Source: Thermodesulfobacteriota bacterium
GTDB taxonomy: Bacteria; Desulfobacterota; S145-22
Reading direction: 5' to 3'
Length of the DNA: 37,378 nt
Assembly (NCBI GenBank): GCA_024763435.1
Contig: JANTFN010000002.1
Coordinates: forward strand, 1-37,378
The position numbers and the translations under genes are program-made. This document shows positions 9,971-37,378 of the stretch, in pieces. The first letter of the stretch is position 1, and each line of letters begins with the position of its first letter. The notes beneath the pieces are model-generated. The model ran no database searches. It was not told the DNA's origin and worked only from the letters and a program-made list of their open reading frames with translations.

Positions 9971-10989
9971 TGGAGAAGGAAATCCAGCCCGGACAGGATG
10001 TATTGATAGACCGCTTTCGTCCGGAAGACGCGGAGGGGGTCGCTAACCTTTTTATCTCTGTTTACGGGGAGGGGTATCCCATTCGGGCCTACGTGGAGCC
10101 GGAACGTCTCAGGGAAGAAAATGCTGCCGAAACCATTATTTCGAGCGTGGCACGGACACCCCGGGGAGAGATTGTCGGTCACAATGCCCTGTTCAGGAGC
10201 GCGCCCCATGCGGGTGTCTATGAATCGGGCGCCGGCCTGGTCCATGAAAACTACCGGGGCGGAAAGGGAGTCTTCACAGAAATGGTTGCCCACGGGCAGG
10301 AACTGGCCCAAAAAACACCTGCCGTCGAAGGCATCTTCGGCGAAGCGGTCTGTAACCATGTTTTTTCCCAGAAACTGACCCATGGGTTGGGATGGAAAAG
10401 CATGGCTGTTGAGGTGGATCTCATGCCCGCCGCTGCTTATGTAAAGGAGAGGAGCGCCCGGGGACGGGTGGCTTCGATTCTTGATTTCAAGACAATTCGT
10501 CCCAGGACCGTCCGCGCCTGCCTGCCTGCCGTTTATGAAAAAGAACTGCAATTTATCTATGATGGCATGGATGATGAGAGAAATCTGGTTCCCTGCAAGG
10601 GATCCCCCCCCGATTCCGTGGAAACCCGCATTGAAAGCCGGTATTTCGAGTTTGCTAACGTGGCCCGGCTGGCCGTTTGGGAAATGGGAAAGGATTTCGC
10701 ACAGGCTTTCCCGGCCCGCGAGAAAGAGATGCTGAACCGGGGAGCAGCGATTACCCAGGTCTGGCTCAACACCGGCGTTCCCTGGTGCGGATGGGCCGTT
10801 GAAATTCTGAGAGATAAAGGGTATTTTCTGGGCGGGGTTCTTCCCCGATGGTTTGACAGTGACGGGTTGCTCATGCTCCGAATTCTACACCGTCCTTTCT
10901 GGGAAGAGATGCGGGTGCATTACGAGCGTGCCCGGAAAATCGTGGCTATCGCCAGAAATGACTGGCAGCGCCTCGGAAAAGAAACCTGA
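9970..10989 (+). CDS. GNAT-family acetyltransferase-like protein with a C-terminal extension (339 aa)
   Basis: N-terminal GNAT pattern (RFRPEDAEGVANLF ... IVGHNALF ... YRGGKGVFTEMV). The start overlaps the previous stop codon by 1 nt (TAATG). Confidence 0.7.
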   Translation: MEKEIQPGQDVLIDRFRPEDAEGVANLFISVYGEGYPIRAYVEPERLREENAAETIISSVARTPRGEIVGHNALFRSAPHAGVYESGAGLVHENYRGGKGVFTEMVAHGQELAQKTPAVEGIFGEAVCNHVFSQKLTHGLGWKSMAVEVDLMPAAAYVKERSARGRVASILDFKTIRPRTVRACLPAVYEKELQFIYDGMDDERNLVPCKGSPPDSVETRIESRYFEFANVARLAVWEMGKDFAQAFPAREKEMLNRGAAITQVWLNTGVPWCGWAVEILRDKGYFLGGVLPRWFDSDGLLMLRILHRPFWEEMRVHYERARKIVAIARNDWQRLGKET

Positions 10990-11044
10990 TTGCGCCGGGA
11001 TTTTCGGGGTGGACAGAAAAAGCCGCCTTTTACGTGGAGGTGAA

Positions 11045-11452
11045 ATGAGGCAAATTATATTGCCGGCCAGGCTGAAAAACCTTGGAGAACTTATTGGTTT
11101 CGTTTCGGCCTGTGCAGAGGATTACGGCCTTTCTCCGGAAAAGATTGGAACGATTGAACTGGCAGCGGAAGAGGCCCTTGTTAATATCATCCGCTACGCC
11201 TATCCGGAAAAGCCGGGGGAGATCGAAATATATTGTCATCAAAACGAAACGGTTTTTATGATTACCTTCAAGGACTGGGGCATTCCCTTCAACCCGCTTT
11301 CCAGGCCGGACCCGAACACGCATCTTTCCCTCGCGGAGCGGCAGATTGGCGGGATGGGAATTTTGCTGATTAAAAAAATGATTCCCGAAGTCCGGTATAA
11401 GCGGGAAAGCCGGACGAATATCCTCTCCTTTGTTATTCCGGAAGAAAAATAA
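11045..11452 (+). CDS. Anti-sigma regulatory factor-type Ser/Thr kinase (RsbW/SpoIIAB-like, 135 aa)
   Basis: Intact N-box (EEALVNIIRYA), G1 (DWGIPF) and G2 (GGMGILLIKKM). GGAGGTG precedes the ATG at 11045. The tracked start at 10853 overlaps the previous gene. Confidence 0.85.
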   Translation: MRQIILPARLKNLGELIGFVSACAEDYGLSPEKIGTIELAAEEALVNIIRYAYPEKPGEIEIYCHQNETVFMITFKDWGIPFNPLSRPDPNTHLSLAERQIGGMGILLIKKMIPEVRYKRESRTNILSFVIPEEK

Positions 11453-11463
11453 AAAGTGTCGCC

Positions 11464-17800: not shown

Positions 17801-17991
17801 TCTTTTGCGGAAGCGCCCGGCATCCGAACAAAAACATCTATCATTGGCACGACAATTTGAGGCTCCTCTTCTCTTGGAAGCTCCAGTGTTGCCATAACAC
17901 CAATCAGGATGGAAGCAATAATGAACAGTGGGGTCAGTTTGGAATTTATGAACGTATGGGCAATTTTTCCGGCTAGCCCGATTTTTCTCAT
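14806..17991 (-). CDS. RND efflux transporter permease (AcrB/AcrD/AcrF superfamily, ~1061 aa)
   Basis: The length and the 12-transmembrane/two-large-loop layout are typical of the family. GGAGGAG lies immediately upstream of the second ATG (17991). The first ATG (18006) would place that Shine-Dalgarno sequence inside the ORF. Confidence 0.93.
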
Positions 17992-18197
17992 ATCCACTCC
18001 TCCCATGGCGGTTCTTTTTTATATGAAACATGATTACGTTAAAGGAAAACTGCCATGAAATCAAGACTGATTTAAAATTTAAAATTGAGAAACTCCGAAA
18101 GGCCACTACTTTCTTTTATTGTGAATCGTTTTCTGGTAAAAGGTGAAGTGAATTACAGACCAGAGCAAAAAACAACGGAGAAACCACAGAAAAAACT

Positions 18198-23040: not shown

Positions 23041-23115
23041 TGGTGGGCGGTACTGGGATTGAACCAGTGGCTTCTACCGTGTGAAGGTAGCACTCTCCCT
23101 CTGAGTTAACCGCCC
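23041..23115 (-). tRNA. tRNA-Val (anticodon CAC), CCA encoded
   Basis: The reverse complement folds as GGGCGGT-TA-ACTC-AGAGGGA-GAGT-G-CTACC-TTCACAC-GGTAG-AAGCC-ACTGG-TTCAATC-CCAGT-ACCGCCC-A-CCA. All four stems are fully paired. Confidence 0.9.
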
Positions 23116-23134
23116 ACATTCAAATTCTTGCGAA

Positions 23135-23163
23135 AACATATCAAAAGTTCACCATGTTGTCAA
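23135..23163 (-). promoter_or_regulatory. Candidate sigma70 promoter for tRNA-Val
   Basis: On the minus strand: TTGACA (23163-23158), a 17-nt spacer, then TATGTT (23140-23135). The -10 box ends about 20 nt upstream of the tRNA 5' end. Confidence 0.55.
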
Positions 23164-23232
23164 ACAAAACAGGGAACACATACCGCTGTCTAACGTGAAA
23201 AATAGACGGGATGTTAGCACCAGCGGAACTGC

Positions 23233-23670
23233 TTACTGGCTTTCATTTTCACCCGTTTCACCCAATTTCTGCCGGAATTGATCAGCGGTATTTTCCATAT
23301 TTTCTAAAATCTTCTTTGCAGTTGCAACAGTTTTGATATTGCCGCAAATTCCCAGACTGTGTCTCAGGACGGGCCCCTGTTTCCCGTAAGTGTTAGAGGA
23401 GATAATAAGAGAATAAGCGCAACTGGGCCGGTTTTTGATTTTTACCGAGAGAAACTCACAGACAAGCATGGAGCCCTCATCGCCGGCAGCCTTCAAAGAG
23501 GCTGAATCACTGATGCCCCGCCTGATAAGGGTAACAAGTCGTTTCCCGACACTGTCATCCTGGCCGGATTGCGCGTTGAATTTAACGGCTATTTTTGTTT
23601 GGGCAATGCAGATAGAGGATGCAGAGAGAATACAAAAAACGATGGATATCTGTGCGAAACGTCTGAACAT
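23233..23670 (-). CDS. Small exported protein of unknown function (145 aa)
   Basis: I chose the internal ATG at 23670 because GGGGAGGAA lies 6 nt upstream of it. It gives a signal-peptide-like N-terminus, MFRRFAQISIVFCILSASSICIAQT. I recognised no family. Confidence 0.5.
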   Translation of the reverse strand: MFRRFAQISIVFCILSASSICIAQTKIAVKFNAQSGQDDSVGKRLVTLIRRGISDSASLKAAGDEGSMLVCEFLSVKIKNRPSCAYSLIISSNTYGKQGPVLRHSLGICGNIKTVATAKKILENMENTADQFRQKLGETGENESQ

Positions 23671-23744
23671 GGTATTTCCTCCCCGGCAATCTCCAAAGGG
23701 TTTATCGGATAGTGTTTTACACCTGTTACCGCCCCTGCTCATGC

Positions 23745-23820
23745 TGGTGCCCCCGGCACGATTCGAACGTGCGGCACCAGGATTAGGAATCCTGTGCTCT
23801 ATCCCCTGAGCTACGGGGGC
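23745..23820 (-). tRNA. tRNA-Arg (anticodon CCT), CCA encoded
   Basis: The reverse complement folds as GCCCCCG-TA-GCTC-AGGGGATA-GAGC-A-CAGGA-TTCCTAA-TCCTG-GTGCC-GCACG-TTCGAAT-CGTGC-CGGGGGC-A-CCA. Confidence 0.9.
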
Positions 23821-23872: not shown

Positions 23873-26575
23873 TTAAATAATATCGTCCACAACAGAAATA
23901 ATATCTTTTATCTTAAAGGGTTTCTTAATAAACTTTTTGACACCAAGTTTAAGGAGTTTTTTAGCCTCCTCGTCGGAGGCCACGGCGGAAATAACGATAA
24001 TTGGAAGATTCTTGACATTTTTAAATAGCCAGCCAATGAGCTCAACGCCATTCATTCTCGGCATGACAAGATCCAGAATAGCAACATCGTAATGAGTCTC
24101 TTTTAGAAAATCGAGGGCGACGAGGCCATCTTCCGCGGCATCAACATCCGTGGTTTCATCCGTGAGATTCTCTTTTAAAACCTCTCTGAGATATTGTTCG
24201 TCTTCAACCACCAGAATCCGACGCTTTTTCGCAGACACCGTATCTTTTTTGTCCGTGTATGCCCGGGCCACATCGCTTAAAGCGGGGCTCTGGTCAATGG
24301 GCAACCAGACGTGAAAGGAAGTTCCCTTTCCTTCTTCACTTTCAACAATAATTTTCCCGCCATTGATTTCGATAATTCTCTGCGAAATAGGAAGCCCCAA
24401 GCCTGTTCCTTTGCCTTCTGTTTTAGTTGTAAAGAAGGGATCGAATATTCTCGGCAGGTCTTCTTTTTTTATTCCGGTGCCGTTATCCGTTACAGAGACA
24501 ATGACATAATTTTTCACAACCTCTGTTCCTACACTTATCTCTCCGCTTTCCTCTAAGGCATGCCTGGCATTTATGACGAGGTTTATCAGAACCTGCTCAA
24601 TTTGCTTCGCGTCTGCGAACACAAAGGGCAGGTCTTCCGGTATATTGACGTTGAAAAGAATGCCTTTGAGGCTTACACGCGCGTTGATAACAGACTCGAC
24701 CTGGCCCAGGATGTCCCGAAGATGGATGGTCTCTTTTTTCGGCTTCGTGGGGCGTGCGAAATTCATCAGGTCTGAGGTTATTTTTGCAATTCTATCCGTC
24801 TGGCCAAGGATCACCTGGACAAATTTTTCGCCATCTTCTTTGCTTATTTTTTTCTCAAGCATCTGCGCCTTAACCGAGATAACAGCCAGGGGGTTGTTGA
24901 TTTCATGGGCCGCACCCGTTGCCAGTTGCCCGATGAGGGCAAGGCGCTGCTGGTGAATCATGCGTTCTTCACTCATCCCCAGTTTGCTGGAAAAGGTTGA
25001 AAGTTTTTCTTCTCTATGACTGATATTTTCCAGAGAGGTAATAATTGTTAACATACCGGACAAAACGCCCGAGAAACTATCAAGAAAGGGGGAAAAATCT
25101 ATACCATTCATTGCCGTTTCAGAATTTTCGGCGATTCGGCAAACAGCTCCCCCGGCCAGGATTTTCCCGCCATTAACATCGGAGAGGAAGAGGGGAACAG
25201 TCCATGTGAAAAGTGTTGTATCCGTCATAGATGGATTACGGGGTTTTTTTACAAAGGATTTTCCCTGCGTATAGGCCTCTTTCAGGCTTTCCCGCACTTC
25301 ATCACCGCTGTTAAAGGAGCTAAAGACAGTATCAAAATTTATAGCCTCAGCCTTGGGGTTCAAAATTCTTTCAGAGATTTCATCTTGCGTGACCTTGTAA
25401 AGGTAAACCTTGCCATCCGGGGCGGAAGAAAAATAAAAAACAAGCTCCTGTGCTGCCGCAAGGTGAGAGAAAAATTCCCAGGCAGCCAGAGCGAGTGTTT
25501 TAATCCAGGGTTGTGATGCGCAATGACTGATAAAAGCAGATAAAGCCTCGACATATTTTTCCAGAAAATAGAGCCGCGTTTGTTCCGCCTCTGCCTCAAT
25601 ATGCATCTTCCCAAGGGCAAGGTTGGCGTCACACAGGATTGAAACAAGGTCGTTTTCTGAGTTGGCCTCTGCTTCCAGTAACTGGGAGTATTCCCCCATT
25701 TTTGTATAAATATAGGCAAGAAGGGTTCGGATATCCGATTCCTTGATTTCCCATAATTCCTTCACCATATTAAAGGTGTTGGTATAATGGAGATGGCATC
25801 CCAGTTTAAAGCTGCTGTTGGAAAAGTAGTTTTCTCCTATCCCATAAACGTTGCATAAGGAATCTACGAACCTGACAAGTTGCGGCAATGTTTTTTGCGA
25901 ACCGTCAGATGAAAAAGGTTGATGGTGAAGCCATATACAATTTACAACCTCTTCCGGAAGTCCCCATTTTTCCGCGGCCCATTTACCCACAATCGTGTGA
26001 TCAACATGCCATATTTCGTTTTCCAGCATCAGGGGAGGTGTGTTGCGCTGGTCAAGATAGGATTGCGTCCCCAGCTTGTCGAGAAGGCTATCGAGCATCG
26101 AGGGGGCCTGAGAATAAATGATAAGTTTTCCAAGGTCGTGAAGAAGCCCTCCCAAAAAGCACTCCTCTTTGCCGGGGAGGTGTTTGCTTTGTGAACAGAA
26201 CCATTCGCATGCCAGGGCACACCCAATGGCGTGTTTCCAGAAGGCATGGAAGATTTCTTTATCTCCATTCCTGAAGGTGTCAAAGATAGCGGACGTGAGG
26301 ATGATGTTTCTGAGGATTCTACGTCCCAGAATCGTAATAGCCCTGGGTATTGTCAAAACTGGCCTGCGGCGGCCAAACAGGGCGGAATTGGAGATCCTCA
26401 GAATCCTGGATGCCAGTGCCGGGTCCAGTTTAATCTTTTCCGCCAGGTCCTCGACCTCAGATGTTTCGTCAATGACAGCGTGGATAAGGGGGATAGCAAT
26501 ACCGGGGAGAGACGGAATTTGATCCGGTGAGGAGATAAAACTTTTTGAAATTGAAGGGTTTTCCTTGTTTTCCAT
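23873..26575 (-). CDS. Soluble hybrid sensor: HDOD domain, unassigned central region, HisKA/HATPase histidine kinase, C-terminal receiver (900 aa)
   Basis: HDOD-like N-terminus (LPSLPGIAIPLIHAVIDETSEVEDLAEKIKLDPALASRILRISNSALFG, later HDLGK). H-box GAAHEINNPLAV. N, G1 and G2 boxes (NLVINARHA, DNGTGI, GTGLGL). Receiver RILVVEDE...AILDLVMPRMNG...KKPF. I saw no clear transmembrane segment. Confidence 0.9.
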   Translation of the reverse strand: MENKENPSISKSFISSPDQIPSLPGIAIPLIHAVIDETSEVEDLAEKIKLDPALASRILRISNSALFGRRRPVLTIPRAITILGRRILRNIILTSAIFDTFRNGDKEIFHAFWKHAIGCALACEWFCSQSKHLPGKEECFLGGLLHDLGKLIIYSQAPSMLDSLLDKLGTQSYLDQRNTPPLMLENEIWHVDHTIVGKWAAEKWGLPEEVVNCIWLHHQPFSSDGSQKTLPQLVRFVDSLCNVYGIGENYFSNSSFKLGCHLHYTNTFNMVKELWEIKESDIRTLLAYIYTKMGEYSQLLEAEANSENDLVSILCDANLALGKMHIEAEAEQTRLYFLEKYVEALSAFISHCASQPWIKTLALAAWEFFSHLAAAQELVFYFSSAPDGKVYLYKVTQDEISERILNPKAEAINFDTVFSSFNSGDEVRESLKEAYTQGKSFVKKPRNPSMTDTTLFTWTVPLFLSDVNGGKILAGGAVCRIAENSETAMNGIDFSPFLDSFSGVLSGMLTIITSLENISHREEKLSTFSSKLGMSEERMIHQQRLALIGQLATGAAHEINNPLAVISVKAQMLEKKISKEDGEKFVQVILGQTDRIAKITSDLMNFARPTKPKKETIHLRDILGQVESVINARVSLKGILFNVNIPEDLPFVFADAKQIEQVLINLVINARHALEESGEISVGTEVVKNYVIVSVTDNGTGIKKEDLPRIFDPFFTTKTEGKGTGLGLPISQRIIEINGGKIIVESEEGKGTSFHVWLPIDQSPALSDVARAYTDKKDTVSAKKRRILVVEDEQYLREVLKENLTDETTDVDAAEDGLVALDFLKETHYDVAILDLVMPRMNGVELIGWLFKNVKNLPIIVISAVASDEEAKKLLKLGVKKFIKKPFKIKDIISVVDDII

Positions 26576-26938: not shown

Positions 26939-27733
26939 CTAAAGTTTCGCGTTTCTCCTCTCAACCAGCTTCTCCCCGACGGGATTCCAATAGGTCTTTG
27001 TTAACTGTTTCTTATGTGAGATAATCCATGCCAAGGCCTCTTTGAGGATTTCAACGACCTCCGGTGTTGTTTCTTTGAGCGCAACATAATCCCTGAACAC
27101 GTTCCTCGCGGGGACACTGTTATCTGTCGTAAATTCCTTTCTCTCGGTAAACATTCCAAATCCCAGAAAGAATTTTCCTGTCTTCATATCCCGGAGGCAC
27201 AGGATTCCCCCCATCTCGTCGTTTTTCCCCTCAACGGTCATGTCAATCAGGGACCGCACCAGAGAGGGCGGCAGAAATTTACGCAAAATATCTCGTTTTT
27301 TCCAGAAATTATACGTGACCCAGAAGCACCGTCTCGGGATATTGATCCCGAGTTTGGCATATTTCACATGAAGCCCTGTCCTTGTCTCAATTTTCCCGCG
27401 GTGATGATCAAAATCGTCAAACGCACGAAATCCCATGTTTTTGAGAATTTTTAGGGTATTGTCACGCTTAAAAACAGGGAAGAAGTCTTCCGGATTTTTC
27501 CGCATGCCCGCAGTGAGCGGTAACCCGCCCGCAACTCTGCCGGCTGCTACTTTTTCAAGAGGCGCTTTTGGCTTCTCCTGTGCTATAACCATCCTGACGC
27601 CAGTTAAAGCAACCAGAAAGGATACAAAAAACACGATTCCCAGGCACCGTGCTAATAAGTATTGAAGGTGTCGCGTCTGATGCAAACAAAAATATTTCAA
27701 GGCCTTTCCCCCCTTTACAGATAATTCCTCCAA
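26939..27733 (-). CDS. Hypothetical exported or membrane-anchored protein (about 253-264 aa)
   Basis: It has the same orientation as the two giant genes and lies directly downstream of them. The tracked start at 27733 is TTG. A second TTG at 27700, preceded by GGGGGGAAAGG, would give MKYFCLHQTRHLQYLLARCLGIVFFVSFLVALTGVRMVIAQE, which looks like a signal peptide. I recognised no family. Confidence 0.55.
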   Translation of the reverse strand: MEELSVKGGKALKYFCLHQTRHLQYLLARCLGIVFFVSFLVALTGVRMVIAQEKPKAPLEKVAAGRVAGGLPLTAGMRKNPEDFFPVFKRDNTLKILKNMGFRAFDDFDHHRGKIETRTGLHVKYAKLGINIPRRCFWVTYNFWKKRDILRKFLPPSLVRSLIDMTVEGKNDEMGGILCLRDMKTGKFFLGFGMFTERKEFTTDNSVPARNVFRDYVALKETTPEVVEILKEALAWIISHKKQLTKTYWNPVGEKLVERRNAKL

Positions 27734-28004
27734 GCCTTAATTCAATATCAGATTTAAAGGGCGTTGTAAAAACCTTACAGGTCATAGTTGTGGAGGATTT
27801 CCCAACTGTTCAGAAGGTCTGGTGGCTTCACCAGTTTGCGGATCTACCTTAAACCTCCCCGATATATTATTTGTTTTCCAAGGGCAAAATTTCCTCCCTT
27901 CTTTTATTTTGAAGATCACGCTGTAATTATATTTTTTAGCTTTTGTTAAATTCCTGGATAGCGCCCTCAGGATGCCAGTAAGGCCCCCACACGGGACTGC
28001 CCTC

Positions 28005-31000
28005 CTAATTTCCTACTGTTACCTTTCCAGAAGCCAGGAGGACCATTTCATTCCCCTTTTTCAGCCACAGGTGATAGGTGGTGACATCTCCCCGGGAGAC
28101 TCTGAAATACACTACCTGATCAATACTGTATTCGTCTCGGCGGAGGCTGATGCTTCCCGGGAACAACGTAGGAATGTCATAGGTGAAAGTCTTCTCCTGT
28201 GTCCCCTGTTCCAAGGCCAGAATGGCCCTGACCGTTGGGGTTACGAAAGAGGAAGAATTGCTTTTATTCCAGATCAGGAATTTAAATTGCAGCCCTGCCC
28301 AGAAGAGCCCCGTAGGTCTCCCCCCGGAATAAATTTTTTTGGTCAGGTCTGTTACCCCGAAACTCGTTTTTAACCAATTATTGTTCGTTGCCGCATTTGA
28401 AGCAGAAGGTGAAGACAATATGCCCGCAACTGTGTTGTTCTTATAACACAATTCCTTGATAGTCCTTTTCGGGTCGATGGTTGCGATATACAATTCACCA
28501 CCATGAATGGGTACTGGAAGCTCTGATCCCTTTATCGACCGGCTGGTTATATTGCCGACATCTAAAGCGCCCACAGGGATTGGTGGTGTCACGAGGTAAT
28601 GGCCCTCTTTGTGCCAGGGGGAATAATTTTTAGACAAAATAATATATTTCGGCTTGTATTTAAATACAAGGCTGGTACGTGGGGATTTATGATCCCCGCT
28701 ATTCTTGATTGTAAAAACCAGTCCGCTGCCCTCTTGCCGGCACGTTACACGTAGATCGGAGTAAGGTGATACATGATACAACATTCTGCCCCTATAATAA
28801 TTGTCGTTTTCATTAGATTCATCAATCACGTTTGAGGGATCGATCGCCACATGTACCCCCAGAGCAGTAATTTGAACCTTACATGTAAATTCTTTGTATA
28901 GGGTTCGCTGGTCCAGCATTGGGGCCAAAAGCTTACTATCAAAAGCTATCTTTTTTTTCCCTTCAAGAACTATAAATTGCAGACGAAAAGGTTTGGACTG
29001 ATAGGCCCCGGTATTTTCGATGATGGTTTGAATCCGGATCTGGTAAGGCTTTTGACAATCTCCGGAAAGCGCATTGGAAATAGAAACAGTCTTGAGTTTC
29101 AGGTTCGGTTTTGTGTCGGAGGTGATCGAAAACAGGTCGCTGATGCCCCTGCCGTCCGTCCCCTGCACTTTCACGCGGTAGGCGCCGGAGGTCAGATTGC
29201 TGCCAATCGTATAGTCTAGGGAACATTGTGTTGTATTGTCCACTATTTGAATGGGGGCATCGGGATGGTCTTTGGGTATCAGTGTGACGGTGAACGGTCC
29301 CGCGACCTGTCCCGCCCAGGCGATCTGGTAGGTTTTCCCTACTGCCCAGATCTTATTTTTATCCGGTGAAAGGATGGTGATTGGTTTGCCGGTAGGGGGA
29401 AGGGGCTTTTTACCAGCCAAGGTTTCAATAGCACCGCGGGGGATTTCCGTGTTTTTTGCAACGATTATCGTCTTTTTGTAAGCAACTTGGCCAGTGTCAG
29501 GCAGGAAATGGCCTTGTTTGTATACCGGAGTAACAACCTTAAACTGAAATGTTCCGGCGTTGGTGATTTTTCCATCCAGTACCAAGTCGAATGTTTCCCC
29601 CGGATAAAGTTCAGGAACGTCAAAACTATTGACGCCCGATTCGAAAATGAACGGGTGAATGCGCACGCTTACGGGTGGGAGAATGGCACGCGTTGAGGTT
29701 TGGTTCTGGAAACGAACTGTGAAGGAAACATTCCGGCCGGCAATGAGATGATCCAGCCCCATTACGCCGGTAACAACCAGCCGGGCATCGGGGCCATGGG
29801 TGCTGGAGGTGCTATGCGCCGATCCAGCTGCGTAGACCTGTAATGTATCGGCAATACGGTTATTATCTTCACGCATTTCATGAATGTGGTCGTGCGGATC
29901 CACAATGACAAGATACTCCTCTCTGCCGGTTGCGCCTTGCCATCTCTTATTGTAGTCATGGGTCCAGACCTCTCCAGGGGCAAGCCTTGGAATATTGTAT
30001 ATCGAATGAACATCATCAAAAACATTTGCAGTCCAGATGTAAAATTCGGCTGTCGTTTCAGGGGCATCGGTAACCCCGATGTTTTTAACCCTGATATGGA
30101 AATGACTTGTACCGACCGAGGCATGATCCCCTACTTTGTTAACAGTTGCCAGGAGATCCGGCAGGGGGCTGACGCCAAAAATGAAAGTCTTTTCACTTTT
30201 CGAAAGATCTTGGGTGGCAAGGGGGTAGTGATGATTGGCATCAGGCTCAAAAACCGCCCGGTATATCCCATAAAACGGCGGGGTAAAGGTAATGCCACAG
30301 GGGAATCCGGGCCCGTCATGCAGCATTGTAGCGGCACTGAACCGCTTTTCAGCGTAGAATCCACCAGGTCCATGGATGGCCACCTTGTGCCACATGGGCT
30401 CAAGCGCGTCGCAACCCGTATTGGTAATAAGCCCCCTTACCGTAACAGATTTTCCGATATACCGTGGCTTTGGACTGGCGGTCTCCTGTTTAACATGCAA
30501 ACGAACATGATCAATATAAAATGAGATTAAGAATGCATGAGTACCCCACTTTTTTACAATCCTTAATTCCAGATGGTATCGCCCCGTTGGGAGGTTTGCC
30601 ACATTCCAGGTATAGCTGCGAATGGAAGGATCCATGCCCCGGGCGATAATCAAATCGGGCATGTTCGGAGGGCCTTCAATGCAGCTTAAATAAAGCCAGA
30701 GCCGAGCATCCGGCCCCGGGTCGGGCATGGTCCAGGCGATGGTATAAGGCTTGTTGGGAGCGATTATTTCATTCTGTTGAGGGTGTGTAAAGGTTCCAAC
30801 CTGAGCGTCGTAGGTTGCTATCTTCACCGGCTTATGAATGTGGATGGGTTTGGCCTTTGAAAGGTTTTCCAGGACATTCGAATTAGGTGTCATCTCACCC
30901 GATGGTTGCGCTTTCGAAACACGCGCGGCGTTTTTGGCCAAGGTAGCCTGTCCGGCGTTAAATTTAACCTTTGGCGGATTGAAATAATGGGTCTTGGTAA

Positions 31001-31916
31001 AGAACCGTTCCTTCGGAGTAAAGGCAGCAAAATTGTGGAAGGAAGCGCCGCCAATCCCCTTGATCCGAAGTGTGTTGTAGCCCCTGGCCATCTGGAAAAA
31101 ACCCTCAATACGGTCTGTCTCGCCCGGCTTCAGTGCCCGAACCCTGAAAATATTCCGTTTCCGGGTCCCGTCCGCCCGATGAACCTGCACCTTGAATTCC
31201 CTCGCTGGCGTGACCTTTTCACCTATATTCTTAAGCGTGATGGCCACCCATGTCTTATCCGGCTTCCTGCCCCTGAAATCATCAAAGATGACCTTCTGGA
31301 CCACAAGCCTCCCCCGCCCCTTTGAGGCCTGGGCCTTTGACCCCCTGCGGGCGCCCTCTGCAACCTCTCCCCCGGGATTGGCAAGGGCCTGGGCAGGCTT
31401 CGCCAGTAAAAAATAACCCTTCTCCAGCCGATTGCCATGCCTATTGGCATCGTTGACGGAAACCTCCAGGGTATTATGGCCCGGCTTAACAGAGAACGTC
31501 CAGGTCAGTTCCTTTCTGGCACCAGCCTTCAAGGCTTGGACGGACCAGCTGTGCTTATCCCTGCTTCTATCTCCCCGGGTCAAAAGTGCCGATGCAGTCG
31601 TGGCCTTGGATTTCGCCTTACCCTCATTCTTGATGGTAACGGTCGTTTCAATCCGCCCTTTCCCTTTACTGGCGAACGTAATACCTGCCACCACAAGGTC
31701 AGGAAACGCAGCATGGGATAGGGTCTCGGCAGAAGGTTTGCCCGGAATGGCGCGAAATTTTCCCGAACCGGAGTGCCCGGGCATGTGTGTCAAGGGAGGA
31801 TTACCCGCCGCTAAGATGCCGGGCAACATGACCAAGAAAAACACTGCCAAGAAAAACACCAATCCCTTTAGACATATTCTGGAATAACCAGGGAAATAAA
31901 ACCGTAAAGCTTTCAT
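28005..31916 (-). CDS. Giant secreted protein A with multiple CARDB-like Ig-fold domains (1303 aa)
   Basis: AGGAGG ribosome-binding site and ATG start. Signal peptide ending ILAAG. Repeated modules begin with PDL-type strands (FPDLVVAGITF, LPDLLATVNKV, YSDLRVTC) and end with acidic/Asn CARDB-like tails (VDPHDHIHEMREDNN, IDPSNVIDESNENDN, IDPKRTIKELCYKNN). Two small beta domains of the form ITILSPDKNKIWAVGKTYQIAW...GAYRVKV are also present. Confidence 0.85.
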   Translation of the reverse strand: MKALRFYFPGYSRICLKGLVFFLAVFFLVMLPGILAAGNPPLTHMPGHSGSGKFRAIPGKPSAETLSHAAFPDLVVAGITFASKGKGRIETTVTIKNEGKAKSKATTASALLTRGDRSRDKHSWSVQALKAGARKELTWTFSVKPGHNTLEVSVNDANRHGNRLEKGYFLLAKPAQALANPGGEVAEGARRGSKAQASKGRGRLVVQKVIFDDFRGRKPDKTWVAITLKNIGEKVTPAREFKVQVHRADGTRKRNIFRVRALKPGETDRIEGFFQMARGYNTLRIKGIGGASFHNFAAFTPKERFFTKTHYFNPPKVKFNAGQATLAKNAARVSKAQPSGEMTPNSNVLENLSKAKPIHIHKPVKIATYDAQVGTFTHPQQNEIIAPNKPYTIAWTMPDPGPDARLWLYLSCIEGPPNMPDLIIARGMDPSIRSYTWNVANLPTGRYHLELRIVKKWGTHAFLISFYIDHVRLHVKQETASPKPRYIGKSVTVRGLITNTGCDALEPMWHKVAIHGPGGFYAEKRFSAATMLHDGPGFPCGITFTPPFYGIYRAVFEPDANHHYPLATQDLSKSEKTFIFGVSPLPDLLATVNKVGDHASVGTSHFHIRVKNIGVTDAPETTAEFYIWTANVFDDVHSIYNIPRLAPGEVWTHDYNKRWQGATGREEYLVIVDPHDHIHEMREDNNRIADTLQVYAAGSAHSTSSTHGPDARLVVTGVMGLDHLIAGRNVSFTVRFQNQTSTRAILPPVSVRIHPFIFESGVNSFDVPELYPGETFDLVLDGKITNAGTFQFKVVTPVYKQGHFLPDTGQVAYKKTIIVAKNTEIPRGAIETLAGKKPLPPTGKPITILSPDKNKIWAVGKTYQIAWAGQVAGPFTVTLIPKDHPDAPIQIVDNTTQCSLDYTIGSNLTSGAYRVKVQGTDGRGISDLFSITSDTKPNLKLKTVSISNALSGDCQKPYQIRIQTIIENTGAYQSKPFRLQFIVLEGKKKIAFDSKLLAPMLDQRTLYKEFTCKVQITALGVHVAIDPSNVIDESNENDNYYRGRMLYHVSPYSDLRVTCRQEGSGLVFTIKNSGDHKSPRTSLVFKYKPKYIILSKNYSPWHKEGHYLVTPPIPVGALDVGNITSRSIKGSELPVPIHGGELYIATIDPKRTIKELCYKNNTVAGILSSPSASNAATNNNWLKTSFGVTDLTKKIYSGGRPTGLFWAGLQFKFLIWNKSNSSSFVTPTVRAILALEQGTQEKTFTYDIPTLFPGSISLRRDEYSIDQVVYFRVSRGDVTTYHLWLKKGNEMVLLASGKVTVGN

Positions 31917-31974
31917 GATAATGCCTCCTAGGGTTCATGAAAAAAATTGATATTTGAAATCATCGGTTATTGTG

Positions 31975-32038
31975 CCTTCTTTTTATAAGTAAGTAACGAT
32001 TCAAGCAAAAAAGTTCACCGGTAAAGGAAATTTTTTTC
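31975..32038 (-). promoter_or_regulatory. Conserved upstream block of giant gene A (putative promoter/operator)
   Basis: It begins 58 nt upstream of the ATG at 31916. It shares acttacttat, a 14-nt perfect gtgaacttttttgc and an A/T tract with the block upstream of gene B. On the minus strand, a candidate -35 TTTTGC (32010-32005) is followed by a 17-nt spacer and a -10 TATAAA (31987-31982). Confidence 0.45.
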
Positions 32039-32066
32039 AGGATGAATTTATTTTCGAATTCGAAGC

Positions 32067-32092
32067 AAAAGGGAGGAAGCACAACTTCCCCC
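32067..32092 (-). terminator. Weak candidate intrinsic terminator between giant genes B and A
   Basis: The minus-strand RNA reads GGGGGAAG-uugug-CUUCCUCC (8 bp including one G-U) followed by CUUUUG. The T-tract is only 4 nt. Confidence 0.3.
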
Positions 32093-32169
32093 TAAATCTT
32101 GATAGCCCTGGAATTTCAATACCGCAAGGACTCATGACCAGCCCGTTCTCCCTTTCAGTTTTCCCAGTT

Positions 32170-35100
32170 TTACCCACATGTGTCATCCGTCACGGTTAGT
32201 TTTATCTTCCCAGAGGTCAACGGGACCATGTTATGCCCTTCTGGCCCATTCTTCAGGAACAGCGTGTAGGAGACATCTCCCTGCGAGGCCATGAAGGGCA
32301 CGGCTCTGCTTATCCGATATTCGTCCCGGCGCGAGGAGCGGCTAACAAAAAAGAGCGGCGGGACGTCATAGGTAAAGGTTTTGTCGCGATTTCTCTGTTT
32401 CAGGTAGAGCACTGCCTGGATGGGCGGATCTTCGGGTGTCACGACGAGCTCGCTCCTATTCCAGAGGACAAATCCGAAATGTAGGAGAATCCGGGGGTGG
32501 GTCTGAATATCCGCACGGCTCACCGTGGTATCATTTTGGCAATGAACCTCGACACCAAAGGCCGTCTTCCACCAGCCTTGAGGGACCCTCGACCGGGAAT
32601 TAGCAGACAGTGCACCCACGACCGTGTTGTTGTCAAGGCACAGCTCCTTAAAATCCCGATTCGGATTGACGGTGGCGACATACGTGTCGCTGCTGTGGAT
32701 GTGAAACGAGACAAAGGAAGGGCCGTCAACTTTCAGCGTTTTCCCGGCACCGATGCTTTTTACCGCGATAGGAGGCGCGACCATATAATCTCCGTCCCGA
32801 TGCCATCCCGGAAGAGGAAGATCCAAACTGTTGTGCAGTTTGAGTTTGAGCTTGATGGTGGTGGCACCCGAGATGCCGTCGCCGGTATTTTTCACCGTGA
32901 ACTTAAGTTTTCGGCCTGCCTGTTGACACGACAAGCGCAGGTCGGGATAGGGTTTAACGCGATACCTGCCATTGATAACGGTATTGTCGTTTTCATTCGA
33001 CTCATCCACCTTGCAATAAGCATCTGCATAAAGTTTCAACGTGTAAACCCCTCCCTTAGAAACATTTATTCGAATCCGCCCGGAACAGGTTCGACGATCC
33101 AGCATCGGCTCCAATTGAACCCCCGCCTTTTCAAGAAAAGACCCCGCTTCTTTACCCGTACACTCCAACAAGACGTTAAAGGGCTTTGTCTGGTATCCTC
33201 CCTTGTTTTCAAGGATAAACCGAACTTCAATGGTGTAAGGTTTCTGAGAAAATCCTGAAAGCTTGTTCGTGATGGAAACGGCCTTGAAGGTCAGATTTGG
33301 CTTGGAATTGCTGGTGATGGCAAAAAAGTCGCTGATTCCCCAGCCGTTTTCACTCTGCACCTTAACCCGATAGAGGCCGCTTTTAAGCTGTCTATTGACC
33401 GTGTAGTCAGTGGCATAGGTCGTAATATTCTCCGCGATCTGAACGGGGGTATTGGGGTGATCTTTAGGGATGAGCATAACGGTAAAGGGCCCCGTAGCCT
33501 CCCCCGTCCAGGCCACCTGATAGAGTTTATGAATTGCCCAAATTTTATTTTTCGAGGGAGACAGGATGGTAATGGACTTGATGGATCTGTCAGATTTGCC
33601 GGGATACGGCCTGGGATTCTTTGAGGCCAAGGCCTCCTGAACGGCGCGCTCTTGATTGCCGCTCTCTCGCACGATGATCGGACGTTCAAAAAGTGTCTGC
33701 CACTGCCCACTGCTGCAGTGCTTCCCTTTAGGAACGTTAATAGCTATCTTGAAAACATGCGTGCCAGTGGAATCCAGTCTAAATGAATCTCCCTGCTCGC
33801 CGCTGTAATAATCATCCGTCTCATCGGGATAAAGAGAAGTGCGATTTATGGGAAAATAATTTTCATGATAGATGGTATTGCCAATCATAATACGAAGGCG
33901 GTTAAGGCACCTGCCCCCCAACGGAACGCGGTCCGGGGAAACGCACTTGAAATGTACCAGAAAAGAGAGCGCGGTCCCGGGTGGAATCGGTGACGTGGGC
34001 AGGCCGTAAACCTTCGTGACCACCAGCCTGGGAGGAATCGGGGTATGCTTGGGCATGGGTTCACCGCCGCGATAGATGTGAAAACGATCGAAAATCCGAT
34101 TGTTGGCCTCATTGGCTTCCACGATCCTGTGCTCCGGATCCACGGTCACAGCATAGCGTTTTCGTCCGGTCCCGCCTGAATAGGACTGCCATTTTTTGGA
34201 AAAATCGTGTTTCCACAATGTCTTTCCATAACCAGAAACCCCAACGGGCTGTAGGGATGGCACGTCAAAGACTTTCCTATCCTGGTCGGTGAGGTCAAAA
34301 TACACCTTCGTGGGAGGGCTCGGAACAGTTCCCAGGTTTACGACCTTGATATGAAAATGCATCCTGCTGATCGCCAGGACGCCGTCCGGCACCTTATTGA
34401 TAAGAACCTTGAGGTCCGGCAGGCCTTGAACAGTGAAATTAAAAGTTCGGTTGATTTCGGGCGAGGCCTCTGTGGCCGGGATATATTTGTGCGTGATGTC
34501 CAATTCATAAACCGCCTTGTAGATACCCGGGAAGGGAGGCTTGAAAGAGAAATGGATGCGTCCCGATTTTCCGTGCGCCGGGGCAGCTATCTTGATGGAA
34601 CGGCTTTCAAGAACAAAATTTTTGGGGCCCGTGACCCTGACCTTTGCATAAAAGGGCTGGGAGCCACCCCCACCGGTGTTGACCACATCCGCGTACAGGG
34701 TGACCTCGTGATTGACAAACAGCCCGTTTGGGATCGCTGTCTTTCTGACGACGCCAAAATGCGGAGTATCGATTTTGATCTCCGTGGAGGCCAACAAACT
34801 CGCCGTATCCGCGTTGGTTTCATACAGCTGGAGGGTGTAGAGATGGCCAGCGGGAATGTTCCCGATGTCCCAGGGATAGCTGCGTGTGGCAGGGTCCAGC
34901 CCCCGCGCGAGGATCAGCTCCGGGAAATGTTTTGGGTTCGTGACCGACTTCAGATGGAGCTCCAGACGCGTGTCCGCGTCCGGCTGTGTATTGTTCCATG
35001 TCCAGCGAATAAAGCAGTGCTGGTTGGGGGGCAAAACAGCATGTGGCTGTGGCTCCAGAAAGCGGGTTATCTCCCCGCCATAGGTCGATGTCCCCACCTG

Positions 35101-36207
35101 TTTGGGGAGGGTGATGCGCTTTTCCTTTAAAAGGGCTTTCAGGGTATTCCCACTGGGCATTTCACTTTTTGTCGTTTTTCCCTTAGAAGCGCGGGCAGCA
35201 TTCTTCGCCAGGGAGGCGTTATTCTTCCGAATCTCCGTGAACAAGTGGGGGTTAAAAATGTGCCGGGCGGTAAAACCCCGGGAAGCCCTGCTGAAAGTCG
35301 TCAGGGCTGACCGGTTTATCCCCCCGATCCCCATAACTTCCAGAGTGTTGACCCCGCGGGCCATCTTGATAAAATCTTCAATCCGGGTGGACTCACCCGG
35401 CATCAGTGCCCGGATTCTGAAAATCTTCCGTTTCCGGCTACCGTCCGCCCGATGAATCTCTACGGGGATGGAGGTCGCCGGTGTCACCGCCTTTCCCCTG
35501 TTTTCTATCTCGATGCTCACCCAAGTTTCATCGGGTTTTTTTCCCCTGTGGTCATCGAAGGTAATCTCTTTAATCGTCAGGATTCCCCGCTTTCCGGCCT
35601 TTTTCGAGAGACCCGTTCGCGCCCCCTTTGCCTTGATCGCTTCACGATGAGCCAGGACACCGGGACCCCGGACCATGATAAGGCAGAACTTCTCCAGGGT
35701 GTTGTTCTGCCGGTTGTTGGAATCGCTCACGGCGGCCTTAACAACGTTCTTCCCCGGGGTGGTGTGGATGAGCCATTTTACCTCTGTGGCATATCCCGCT
35801 TTCAGGGCCTTGACCCTGAAGGATTTTTTATCCCGGGTTCTATCCCCGCGCGTCAAAAGCGCCGAGACGGTTGTTTTGGAAGAGGTCACTTTTCCAATAT
35901 TTTTAACCTTGATAATGACCCATGCCGTATCCTTTTCTTTCGCCTTCTGCGTCTTAAAGGTAATGCTTGAGATGGTCAGGTCGGGGATGCCGGCAACATG
36001 GGAGAGGGTGCGTGAGGAAGGTTTTCCTGGGATGTTGGCGAACCCATTAGACGCGGGTTTGCCGGGAACATGGGTGAAAACAGTATTCCCCGCGAAGAGA
36101 CTGCCAGAAAATATCATCAGAAGGGCGCATGTCAGAACAAAAACAGACAGGTGCCATGGACGGTGAGTTTCTGAATGATGCCTTTGAAAAGCCAATAAAG
36201 CCTTCAT
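32170..36207 (-). CDS. Giant secreted protein B with multiple CARDB-like Ig-fold domains (1345 aa), paralogue of A
   Basis: GGAGG ribosome-binding site and ATG start. Signal peptide ending SLFAG. It is collinear with protein A along its whole length, for example ALLTRGDRTRDKKSFRVKALKAG vs ALLTRGDRSRDKHSWSVQALKAG, VDESNENDN in both, and ITILSPSKNKIWAIHKLYQVAW vs ITILSPDKNKIWAVGKTYQIAW. Confidence 0.85.
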   Translation of the reverse strand: MKALLAFQRHHSETHRPWHLSVFVLTCALLMIFSGSLFAGNTVFTHVPGKPASNGFANIPGKPSSRTLSHVAGIPDLTISSITFKTQKAKEKDTAWVIIKVKNIGKVTSSKTTVSALLTRGDRTRDKKSFRVKALKAGYATEVKWLIHTTPGKNVVKAAVSDSNNRQNNTLEKFCLIMVRGPGVLAHREAIKAKGARTGLSKKAGKRGILTIKEITFDDHRGKKPDETWVSIEIENRGKAVTPATSIPVEIHRADGSRKRKIFRIRALMPGESTRIEDFIKMARGVNTLEVMGIGGINRSALTTFSRASRGFTARHIFNPHLFTEIRKNNASLAKNAARASKGKTTKSEMPSGNTLKALLKEKRITLPKQVGTSTYGGEITRFLEPQPHAVLPPNQHCFIRWTWNNTQPDADTRLELHLKSVTNPKHFPELILARGLDPATRSYPWDIGNIPAGHLYTLQLYETNADTASLLASTEIKIDTPHFGVVRKTAIPNGLFVNHEVTLYADVVNTGGGGSQPFYAKVRVTGPKNFVLESRSIKIAAPAHGKSGRIHFSFKPPFPGIYKAVYELDITHKYIPATEASPEINRTFNFTVQGLPDLKVLINKVPDGVLAISRMHFHIKVVNLGTVPSPPTKVYFDLTDQDRKVFDVPSLQPVGVSGYGKTLWKHDFSKKWQSYSGGTGRKRYAVTVDPEHRIVEANEANNRIFDRFHIYRGGEPMPKHTPIPPRLVVTKVYGLPTSPIPPGTALSFLVHFKCVSPDRVPLGGRCLNRLRIMIGNTIYHENYFPINRTSLYPDETDDYYSGEQGDSFRLDSTGTHVFKIAINVPKGKHCSSGQWQTLFERPIIVRESGNQERAVQEALASKNPRPYPGKSDRSIKSITILSPSKNKIWAIHKLYQVAWTGEATGPFTVMLIPKDHPNTPVQIAENITTYATDYTVNRQLKSGLYRVKVQSENGWGISDFFAITSNSKPNLTFKAVSITNKLSGFSQKPYTIEVRFILENKGGYQTKPFNVLLECTGKEAGSFLEKAGVQLEPMLDRRTCSGRIRINVSKGGVYTLKLYADAYCKVDESNENDNTVINGRYRVKPYPDLRLSCQQAGRKLKFTVKNTGDGISGATTIKLKLKLHNSLDLPLPGWHRDGDYMVAPPIAVKSIGAGKTLKVDGPSFVSFHIHSSDTYVATVNPNRDFKELCLDNNTVVGALSANSRSRVPQGWWKTAFGVEVHCQNDTTVSRADIQTHPRILLHFGFVLWNRSELVVTPEDPPIQAVLYLKQRNRDKTFTYDVPPLFFVSRSSRRDEYRISRAVPFMASQGDVSYTLFLKNGPEGHNMVPLTSGKIKLTVTDDTCG

Positions 36208-36268
36208 TCCCTTTCCTCCTTTATTAGCGGTCTAATATATTTAATTGAAATGCTGTGTCCGCATTTTT

Positions 36269-36330
36269 CCTTCTTTGATAAGTAAGTGCGGGTTTTGGCA
36301 AAAAAGTTCACACGAGAAAAAATTTTTTTG
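36269..36330 (-). promoter_or_regulatory. Conserved upstream block of giant gene B (putative promoter/operator)
   Basis: It begins 61 nt upstream of the ATG at 36207. It has the same architecture as 31975-32038: -35 TTTTGC (36303-36298), a 17-nt spacer, and -10 TATCAA (36280-36275) on the minus strand. Confidence 0.45.
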
Positions 36331-36412
36331 ACGTGACGGAAAAAACATAGTATGAGGGCACGGGAAGATGAATTTTTCTCTAATTTACTTCGTGGAAAGG
36401 AAACCCGATCCT

Positions 36413-36454
36413 TCACAAAATAAAACAGAGAAGAGCGCTCAAGGCCTCTTCCCT
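36413..36454 (-). terminator. Candidate intrinsic terminator (second of two downstream of the DUF362 gene)
   Basis: The minus-strand RNA reads AGGGAAGAG-gccuugagcg-CUCUUCUCU (9 bp including one G-U) followed by GUUUUAUUUUGUG. Confidence 0.5.
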
Positions 36455-36518
36455 GAAATGGCAAAACATACCCCTTTTTAAAACCACGAGAAATCACTAC
36501 ACTTATCCCCGTACGCTC

Positions 36519-36563
36519 AAAAAACACTGAAGCGATCATCCTTCTGAAAGGCAGCGTCGCTTC
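36519..36563 (-). terminator. Candidate intrinsic terminator downstream of the DUF362 gene
   Basis: The minus-strand RNA reads GAAGCGA...(inner CCUU-ucag-AAGG)...UCGCUUC followed by AGUGUUUUUUG. It lies 129 nt after the stop codon at 36692. Confidence 0.5.
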
Positions 36564-36691
36564 CAAAACATTGTTTTATTGATAAATCGCTTTTATGGGT
36601 TTGTCAAGGTTTTTTTAAGCTGGATGATTTGTGTTTTTGGGATTGGAGTTTGGATATTTTTTTCTTTTCTTCAACCTAAATTCCCTGCTGC

Positions 36692-37378
36692 TCATGGCAG
36701 GCGATCAATCACAACGAGATTGTAATCGCGCAGGCCCAATCCCATCTTTTCGGCATGACGCAGGTGGATGGTCCAGTCAACCTTGGGATATTGCTTCTCG
36801 AAGGGATTTTCCATGGATTCATAAGGTAACTGGAGAAGTTCCCGTATCGCTTTCGGGGGACGGCAAATCAGGTCGACCGATGCCTGGTCAACGGCCACCG
36901 GGTCCGTGGAGGCCACAATCCCGATATCCGAGGCAATGGCCACGCCGGAATGGGAGTTGCAATCGCAGATGGGGCTGACCTGCCAGACAAAATTGAAAAA
37001 AAGACTGGTTTCTTTTTTGCCGGTAACGGCCGCGGCGGCATACTCGGCCATTTTTTCCTGAAAGGCGGGAATAGTTTCATTCCACTGGATTTGAATTGCC
37101 TTTTGCGGACATGTCGTGATGCACTCCCCGCATCCCACGCATTTTTCAGCGTCGATATGGGCCTTCTTGTTTTCTACCGTAATGGCGTTTTGGGCGCAGA
37201 CCTTAACGCAGGTAGCACACCCCACGCATTTTTTTCGCTTGACCTTGGGTGCGATAGTCGAATGCTGGGCGAGTTTTCCCTTTCGCGCGGCGCAGCCCAT
37301 GCCGATATTTTTAAGGGTTCCGCCAATCCCGGATAATTCGTGGGCCTTGAAATGGGTTGCCGCGATGATGGCATCCGC
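36692..37378 (-). CDS. DUF362-family protein with an inserted 2x[4Fe-4S] ferredoxin domain (partial; N-terminus lies beyond the window edge)
   Basis: The frame stays open from 37300 to the window edge (…ADAIIAATHFKAHELSGIGGTLKNIGMGCAARKGK), so the tracked Met at 37300 is internal. Two CxxCxxCxxxCP motifs are present (CVGCATCVKVCAQ and CVGCGECITTCPQ), and the C-terminal VASTDPVAVD is typical of DUF362. Confidence 0.8.
   Translation of the reverse strand, partial: ADAIIAATHFKAHELSGIGGTLKNIGMGCAARKGKLAQHSTIAPKVKRKKCVGCATCVKVCAQNAITVENKKAHIDAEKCVGCGECITTCPQKAIQIQWNETIPAFQEKMAEYAAAAVTGKKETSLFFNFVWQVSPICDCNSHSGVAIASDIGIVASTDPVAVDQASVDLICRPPKAIRELLQLPYESMENPFEKQYPKVDWTIHLRHAEKMGLGLRDYNLVVIDRLP

Follow-up and report, generated by a model that had tools for sequence, protein, structure and literature searches.

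Envelope and surface proteins built from many immunoglobulin (Ig)-like domains are a well-known kind. Generic multi-CARDB (PF07705) surface proteins of bacteria and archaea combine a Sec signal with CARDB/E-set Ig-like arrays, carry no catalytic domain, have few homologues and are viewed as serving adhesion or the matrix; in syntrophic sulfate reducers, CARDB proteins have been treated as lineage-specific putative adhesins with few homologues (PMC10553843). VARTIG modules, found in Thermococcales, encode large secreted Ig-domain proteins (Makarova et al. 2021, PMC8416519). The giant Ig-repeat adhesins of diderms, among them LapA/BapA, intimin/invasin, autotransporters and cargo of the type IX secretion system (T9SS), use long Ig-like chains to project a binding tip from the cell. 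Here, we analyze two adjacent genes, A and B, on a 37,378-nt stretch of a Thermodesulfobacteriota genome (GCA_024763435.1, contig JANTFN010000002.1, positions 1 to 37,378), hereafter the window. Their products share the long Ig-like chains of the diderm adhesins and the general plan of multi-CARDB proteins, and form a family that is new within this known kind. Unlike generic multi-CARDB proteins, the family combines a fixed 11-domain order, two Kre9/KNH-type domains, a very basic N-terminal module, a C-terminal sandwich of its own and a dedicated promoter-like motif.

With moderate confidence, we interpret A and B as Sec-exported, accessory, adhesin-like proteins of the envelope or matrix in an uncultured Desulfobacterales-type diderm, belonging to a recombining family and encoded as self-contained cassettes under one promoter type. 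This agrees with the way in which CARDB proteins of syntrophic sulfate reducers have been classed (PMC10553843). An earlier reading of this DNA, made from the letters and their open reading frames (ORFs) and here called the sequence-only reading, had described the genes as tandem, same-strand, collinear paralogues. The ORF coordinates (Table 1) and a single full-length collinear BLASTP alignment of the two proteins (41% identity, 55% positives, E = 0) bear this out. Identity varies from 20% to 63% per 60-column window, and the genes share no long exact matches, the best repeat being 139 nt at 76%. Strong AGGAGG ribosome-binding sites lie 7-8 nt before the ATG of both A and B. The public call for B (P0021, 1259 aa) begins at Met45 and misses the signal; the 1303-aa start is preferred because AGGAGG stands 8 nt upstream and residues 1-44 are kept in the homologue at the related locus L003. 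Mature A and B measure ~140-145 kDa and are strongly basic (pI 9.7-9.9), with a net charge of +71 in A, of which +39 falls within residues 40-379.

Table 1. Positions of genes, protein modules and control elements of the A/B locus within the window
Feature	Position	Strand	Remarks
Gene A	32170-36207	minus	1345 aa
Gene B	28005-31916	minus	1303 aa; collinear paralogue of A, 41% identity
N-terminal module of A (aa 40-379)	35071-36090	minus	PGKP motif, two CARDB-type domains, two basic linkers, net +39
C-terminal domain of A (aa 1201-1345)	32173-32607	minus	8-strand Ig-like beta sandwich, family-specific
C-terminal domain of B (about aa 1167-1303)	28008-28418	minus	
Shine-Dalgarno AGGAGG of A	36215-36220	minus	
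Shine-Dalgarno AGGAGG of B	31924-31929	minus	
Promoter-like motif of A, TGAACTTTTTTGCCAAAACCCGCACTTA	36283-36310	minus	75 nt before start codon; A7T6 tract precedes
Promoter-like motif of B, TGAACTTTTTTGCTTGAATCGTTACTTA	31990-32017	minus	73 nt before start codon
Terminator-like hairpin with U tract (inter-gene hairpin)	32072-32092	minus	Between stop of A and motif of B; conserved in L003
Terminator-like hairpin with U tract (leader hairpin)	36416-36455	minus	Upstream of A motif; conserved in L014
Sigma-70-like site TTGACA-N17-TATCAA	36579-36607	minus	Far upstream of A, in 430-nt non-coding leader
Segment with both genes and control regions	27714-36696		~9.0 kb; absent from matching site of L006
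DUF362/4Fe-4S gene	36692-37378	minus	Flank; runs off window
w264, small exported protein of unknown function	26939-27733	minus	Flank; conserved syntenic neighbor

Pfam searches (gathering thresholds of 22.7 bits for CARDB and 24.6 bits for Kre9_KNH, PF10342) place CARDB in five stretches of A (117 bits) and four of B (121 bits), and Kre9_KNH, or KNH, in two stretches of each protein (42.6 bits in A, 37.7 bits in B). When ten segments of A were each scanned on their own against Pfam, CARDB exceeded its threshold in residues 75-180, 594-712 and 967-1083 (31.2, 39.9 and 28.5 bits) and fell just under it in 481-593 and 1086-1200 (21.1 and 19.3 bits); KNH was located at 380-480 and 879-966 (25.1 and 26.5 bits). 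Residues 208-300, 725-850 and 1207-1345 gave no match in these segment-wise scans, and profile-profile comparison with the family's own best CARDB domain related the first two of them to CARDB with 93% and 75% probability, respectively. The order in A therefore runs from a signal peptide (residues 1-39) and a PGKP linker through a CARDB domain, a basic linker, a CARDB-like domain, a second basic linker and a KNH domain, continuing with three CARDB-like domains, the other KNH domain, two CARDB domains and the C-terminal sandwich. Judged by the Pfam searches, the segment scans and the profile-profile comparison, the about seven CARDB-like modules and two small beta domains listed in the sequence-only reading are a fair count. 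The PDL start and ESNE.NN tail of these modules are what we take, from the Pfam model, to be the CARDB signature itself.

The N-terminal module of A also occurs in two proteins of 750-770 aa (P0006 and P0030) whose distal domains differ. This distribution suggests a constant attachment base for anionic envelope or matrix polymers, with variable distal parts. Within the first CARDB domain, an RGD tripeptide embedded in LLTRGDR is near-invariant across the family (A residues 118-122, window ~35842-35856; B residues 112-116) and is probably structural. An AlphaFold2 model of A 966-1345 is all-beta and comprises three sandwiches, with a predicted local distance difference test (pLDDT) score of 70. 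Foldseek relates this model only to generic tandem Ig/FnIII/MG arrays (integrin legs, complement, alpha-2-macroglobulin and mastigoneme), and the matches to MG arrays, with template modeling (TM) scores of about 0.2, represent generic Ig-array similarity. The thioester CxEQ motif and the A2M Pfam families, sought as a test for alpha-2-macroglobulin/complement kinship, are absent from A and B. A PDB sequence search with A returned one marginal match (2KUT, E = 0.03), and one with the C-terminal profile returned none.

The conserved C-terminal domain described in the sequence-only reading holds up as the last ~145 aa, which are 45% identical between A and B and have no Pfam or NCBIfam match. Modeled alone with AlphaFold2 from a 12-sequence alignment, it forms an eight-strand sandwich (pLDDT 86.5, predicted TM score 0.81). 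Among the best 50 listed Foldseek matches, the closest PDB structures are the RhoGDI, ApaG and factor XIII sandwiches (TM 0.4-0.5), and neither a T9SS C-terminal domain nor a membrane barrel is present. An hhalign comparison with CARDB is weak (20%, E = 1e-3), with the CARDB core pattern reproduced in the alignment. A hidden Markov model search with the domain across 1.84 billion representatives retrieved 12 proteins, 11 of which are of the same architecture or fragments of it; the lowest-scoring one, P0029, is plainly spurious, being a repeat protein unrelated to the family. Because the domain occurs only in this architecture, it does not serve as a common tag on diverse cargo; this confinement and the Ig-like sandwich model rule it out as a sorting tag. 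The A-type tails (A, window 32173-32190; P0002, P0003, P0019, P0020 and P0022) share a conserved end, ..(N/D)G(T/A)C(G/T)G(E), without which the B-type proteins end. Its single Cys has no conserved partner inside the C-terminal domain.

The sole hydrophobic segment of A and B in a hydropathy scan is N-terminal, with no hydrophobic window outside residues 10-42. In the family alignment, on which cleavage was judged by eye, a helix breaker lies 4-6 residues before a conserved site, ..L(F/A/P)A followed by G/A, with small residues at -3 and -1, and we read the segment as a predicted cleaved Sec signal. Motif scans of A and B reveal no lipobox ([LVI][ASTVI][GAS]C) and no Tat, PEP or CxxCH motif; a Cys in the h-region of A's signal is not conserved across the family. 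A C-terminal LPXTG is absent, the two LPxTG matches of B (805 and 839) being internal, and the NCBIfam sorting-domain models (sortase/exosortase type, LPXTG, PEP-CTERM and GlyGly-CTERM) give no match.

The known routes of giant diderm adhesins fare no better. LapA/BapA-type adhesins of the type I secretion system carry RTX repeats and a C-terminal signal and have no Sec signal, whereas A and B lack GGxGxD repeats and present an N-terminal hydrophobic signal instead. Intimin/invasin and autotransporters, which use type V secretion, possess a beta-barrel, and T9SS cargo a C-terminal domain, neither of which is found in A or B: Pfam detects no barrel family, the last 380 aa of A are modeled as sandwiches, segment 75-180 is CARDB, and no T9SS C-terminal-domain model (type A or B) matches at E <= 1 in Pfam or NCBIfam. 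NCBIfam returned one match only, to PorU2 in a region resembling CARDB, and at 22.8 bits it falls far short of the cut-off of 450. Pfam, NCBIfam, motif scans and structure search together confirm the claim that no recognizable sorting or anchoring signal is present.

The sequence-only reading had concluded from this absence that export is unexplained. In a diderm, the absence is not anomalous: type II secretion substrates carry no linear signal, and retention in the envelope is also possible. After export with a Sec or Tat signal, such substrates fold in the periplasm and are not known to need a linear secretion motif, which agrees with the negative findings for A and B. No structural secretion signal has been defined for the pathway. 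An absent recognizable signal is expected for several export routes, and the pair therefore poses no new secretion problem. The earlier word "secreted" goes too far, as the sequence implies only Sec export to the periplasm.

A and B might instead stay in the periplasm or envelope as structural or scaffold proteins, perhaps held by an uncleaved inner-membrane signal anchor. Such residence would sit well with the lack of an outer-membrane translocation or anchoring signal of any known type, with an N-terminal hydrophobic stretch that is fairly long (16-24 residues across the family) and with the finding that secretion genes are adjacent at no locus; secretion machinery is not a conserved neighbor at L001-L005 or L014-L018. 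However, an extended chain of ~11 Ig-like domains would span ~40 nm, which exceeds the usual width of the periplasm, and the accessory, mosaic, fast-diverging pattern described below is typical of exposed proteins. The helix breaker and the small residues at -3 and -1 also fit a cleaved signal rather than an anchor. We consider periplasmic residence unlikely.

Each gene had been credited with a conserved upstream block, and the sequence bears this out: the 56-nt stretches at 31981-32036 and 36274-36329 share 73% identity. The block is not just left over from the duplication. When seven family loci encoding proteins of no more than ~50% identity are aligned, an invariant TGAAC.TTTT...ACTTA core after an A/T tract emerges, giving the family-wide promoter-like motif TGAACyTTTT-N12/13-nACTTA. 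The pattern TGAACNTTTT-N10-14-ACTTA has exactly 2 matches in the window, where 0 are expected. In ~250 kb, comprising the related loci (some duplicated) and the window, the motif occurs on the coding strand only, 42-154 nt upstream of a start codon, and the genes behind it encode family members, shorter proteins with the N-terminal module and neighboring secreted Ig-like proteins (L002 6572, L018 4114). The motif does not fit the sigma-70 or sigma-54 consensus, and appears loosely similar to extracytoplasmic function (ECF)/RpoE-type promoters (GAACTT-N16-TCnnA); it likewise fits GAACTT-N16-xCTxA in a loose way.

The sequence-only reading saw in the upstream blocks a sign of alternative expression of two variants, which is not borne out, as the same family-wide motif stands before both genes. 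Because both carry this motif, A and B would be co-regulated rather than alternative, and a single dedicated factor probably activates both. Large exported all-beta proteins without an enzymatic domain, encoded by two paralogues that each have their own promoter, would suit an S-layer or cell coat for which A and B supply alternative variants. Yet the same promoter-like motif on both genes gives no sign of a switch, the inverted repeats near B are unconserved with no recombinase nearby, the related contig L006 lacks the pair at this site, and the family numbers about a dozen among 1.84 billion representatives. So few homologues among billions of proteins, and a relative without the pair at the corresponding position, make the S-layer-like coat suggested earlier unlikely, and its version with alternative variants highly improbable.

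An inverton at the B promoter was considered and ruled out, the 14-nt inverted repeats (31935-31948 and 32029-32042) being A7/T7 runs; they are conserved neither in L003 nor upstream of A, and no recombinase gene lies nearby. Terminator-like hairpins are associated with both genes (Table 1). The inter-gene hairpin has a folding z score of -2.2 in the window and -3.0 in L003, and the L014 version of the leader hairpin carries a change that strengthens the stem. The 430-nt leader of A is ~89% identical to that of L014, and Rfam detects no RNA element or riboswitch in it at the gathering threshold or at E <= 1. A 120-aa ORF at 36204-36566 is ruled out as a gene, with indels relative to L014 that are not multiples of three and no Pfam match.

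Comparison of homologues with A and B by sliding-window identities reveals reciprocal mosaics. The L014 protein (P0005) is A-like over residues 1-250 (87-97%) and B-like over 263-960 (up to 100% per window), and resembles neither thereafter; the corresponding DNA is 85-89% identical to A in the upstream region and 5' end and then ~80% identical to B. The L003 gene is the reciprocal case, B-like over residues 1-250 (77-97%) and A-like from ~270 to the contig end (83-97%), and P0002 also joins a B-head to an A-body at lower identity. All four head/body combinations exist, and recombination is therefore required. The junctions fall in the two best-conserved stretches, RADGxRKR..FRVRAL of the second domain and the second KNH domain, and each head type travels with its own upstream region.

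The family is very rare, accessory and lineage-specific. Among 5.8 billion proteins, A as the query retrieved just four further full-length relatives and one shorter protein, and B as the query added another shorter protein. Loci from the genome and metagenome scans come only from metagenome-assembled genomes (MAGs) titled Thermodesulfobacteriota, Desulfobacterales or "bacterium"; the metagenome scan added one short new contig, L013, and the family alignment with P0006 was too divergent for the locus scan. No source gives A, B or their relatives a protein name. The window itself is bacterial and diderm-like, encoding RuvABC, YebC, Era, RodZ and an AcrB-type RND pump.

At the level of the locus, the two genes flanking the ~9.0-kb segment (Table 1) lie ~10 bp apart in L006, as seen by blastn and the gene table. 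Window 37377-36697 corresponds to L006 9273-9953 (85% identity), and window 27713-26929 to L006 9964-10718 (82-84%). The segment is present in one genome and absent in the other, through either insertion or deletion. The w264 homologue of L005 stands between an A-like gene and a B-like remnant that has frameshifts and an internal deletion. With an HDOD gene downstream as in the window, this is the same neighborhood, which is therefore a variable site. The B-like copy of L005 (4803-6761) has residues ~80-680 deleted and several frameshifts, and is a decaying paralogue before which an intact promoter-like motif (4657-4685) is retained. The homologue in L014 has an ISL3 transposase gene immediately upstream.

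In relatives, the family gene can be clustered with genes for other signal-peptide KNH/CARDB/TIG proteins (L002 6572-10799, L018 2754-7676 and L016 148-6213). These Ig-domain neighbors measure about 160, 425-443, 620 and 545 aa, and others 364 and 1020 aa. Some of their genes lie behind the TGAAC...ACTTA motif, and none has a homologue in the window.

The mosaics and the Ig-encoding neighbors invite comparison with VARTIG, to which the family is similar in its CARDB-type Ig domains, mosaic recombination, variable loci and, in relatives, Ig-encoding neighbors. A bacterial counterpart would consist of Ig proteins recombined for self/non-self or partner recognition or for inter-microbial conflict in dense sediment or vent communities. 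Large CARDB proteins that bear a signal peptide, the shuffling of modules among paralogues and genomes, variable locus content and, in relatives, downstream Ig-domain protein genes under the same promoter motif are all compatible with this proposal. The VARTIG modules, however, are archaeal and feature a C-terminal sorting signal, a hypervariable distal Ig domain and polymorphic-toxin-like downstream small membrane proteins. A and B have no C-terminal sorting signal and no C-terminal hydrophobic segment, and show no sequence relationship to arCOG07710 and no detectable homology to VARTIG beyond the CARDB fold. The window is without downstream small membrane-protein or toxin/immunity-like genes, B being followed by w264 and a histidine kinase. 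Variability is not concentrated distally, the most variable windows lying in D4, D6 and D8, and ~10 sequences are too few for establishing hypervariability. A VARTIG counterpart is accordingly doubtful. We give equally little credence to an extended version, in which the family and its Ig neighbor genes would form a recombining VARTIG-like regulon with its own sigma factor or regulator, serving partner or kin recognition in vent or seep Desulfobacterales aggregates. In that improbable arrangement, attachment would rest with the basic N-terminal module as an unchanging base, and specificity with the reshuffled body and C-terminal third.

Under the interpretation that we favor, adhesin-like envelope or matrix proteins encoded as cassettes, each gene would be an expression unit composed of an insulating hairpin, an A/T tract, the TGAACyTTTT-N12/13-nACTTA motif, a ~75-nt 5' untranslated region, a strong Shine-Dalgarno sequence and the ORF. 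One dedicated factor would act on the shared motif and turn A and B on together. The products would leave the cytoplasm by Sec export through a cleavable N-terminal signal and fold as a chain of ~11 beta-sandwich domains. Because no catalytic, membrane-spanning or known sorting element is present, A and B would act by binding or as structure, most likely in the form of an elongated adhesin or matrix component at the cell surface or in its surroundings. Passage across the outer membrane would most plausibly rely on a pathway that dispenses with a linear signal, for instance type II secretion, and the proteins may be retained through their strongly basic N-terminal module (net +39), which would bind anionic lipopolysaccharide, exopolysaccharide or extracellular DNA. 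The family would evolve as cassettes are gained and lost at variable sites, and as homologous recombination between paralogues exchanges N-terminal modules, bodies and C-terminal thirds.

Several observations weigh against this interpretation. The window and the related loci contain no sigma-factor gene that could supply the dedicated factor, and type II secretion (gsp) genes are likewise missing from the window and from every related locus. By folding energy alone, the leader hairpin is unexceptional, with a z score of -0.7 in the window and -2.8 in L014. The mosaic contigs are short-read metagenome assemblies, in which chimerism is possible in principle, although the lack of long exact repeats between A and B gives little occasion for it. 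Finally, "adhesin" is a default reading of Ig arrays rather than a demonstration.

Beyond the pair, w264 has no Pfam or NCBIfam match and falls into 12 clusters with 60-83% identity in Deltaproteobacteria-type MAGs, usually adjacent to a 5'-nucleotidase gene; its public call of 217 aa begins past the hydrophobic N-terminus. As a secretion or anchoring partner, w264 is ruled out: its homologues elsewhere adjoin 5'-nucleotidase, MutS or Mrp genes and no CARDB gene, which makes it a syntenic marker. Downstream of w264 lies an HDOD-HisKA-HATPase-REC hybrid kinase gene (window 23873-26575, minus strand), and an HDOD-GAF protein is encoded at the equivalent position beside the B-like remnant of L005 (6993-8507). 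The shared HDOD genes may reflect synteny or a regulatory link. A tRNA-targeted island is ruled out, as the tRNA genes (23041-23115 and 23745-23820) are ~4 kb from the segment boundary. These genes, tRNA-Val(CAC) and tRNA-Arg(CCT) (window 23041-23820, minus strand), flank a 169-aa ORF (23233-23742) without Pfam or NCBIfam match.

Farther along the window, positions 9970-13416 (plus strand) hold an apparent partner-switching module, in which an RsbW-like HATPase_c_2 kinase (10853-11452) precedes a dCache-HAMP-SpoIIE phosphatase (11464-13416); a 339-aa ORF of no clear family comes before both. A three-subunit molybdenum hydroxylase of the xanthine dehydrogenase/CO dehydrogenase type (MoCoBD, 2Fe-2S and FAD subunits) is encoded at 4071-7710 (plus strand), followed by genes for an MFS transporter and a GDSL-like hydrolase. 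Among the ORFs scanned, none next to the AcrB-type RND transporter gene (14806-18006, minus strand) encodes a membrane-fusion protein or an outer-membrane factor. At 1653-2987 (plus strand), a 444-aa ORF without Pfam or NCBIfam match overlaps the annotated start of a class I/II aminotransferase ORF (2806-4074), and one of the two starts is probably wrong.

If our interpretation is right, A and B represent one more lineage-specific adhesin-like family, useful mainly for annotation. Two of its parts are new and lack a Pfam model: the Ig-like domain family at the C-terminus and the basic module at the N-terminus. Of the new facts, the mosaicism of the family and its dedicated promoter-like motif are the most useful. 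The mosaics, reciprocal in joining A-head to B-body and B-head to A-body, offer a clean natural case of module exchange between tandem paralogues and are usable for studying surface-protein diversification in sediment and vent sulfate reducers. The compact promoter-like motif could define a small envelope regulon in uncultured Desulfobacterales.

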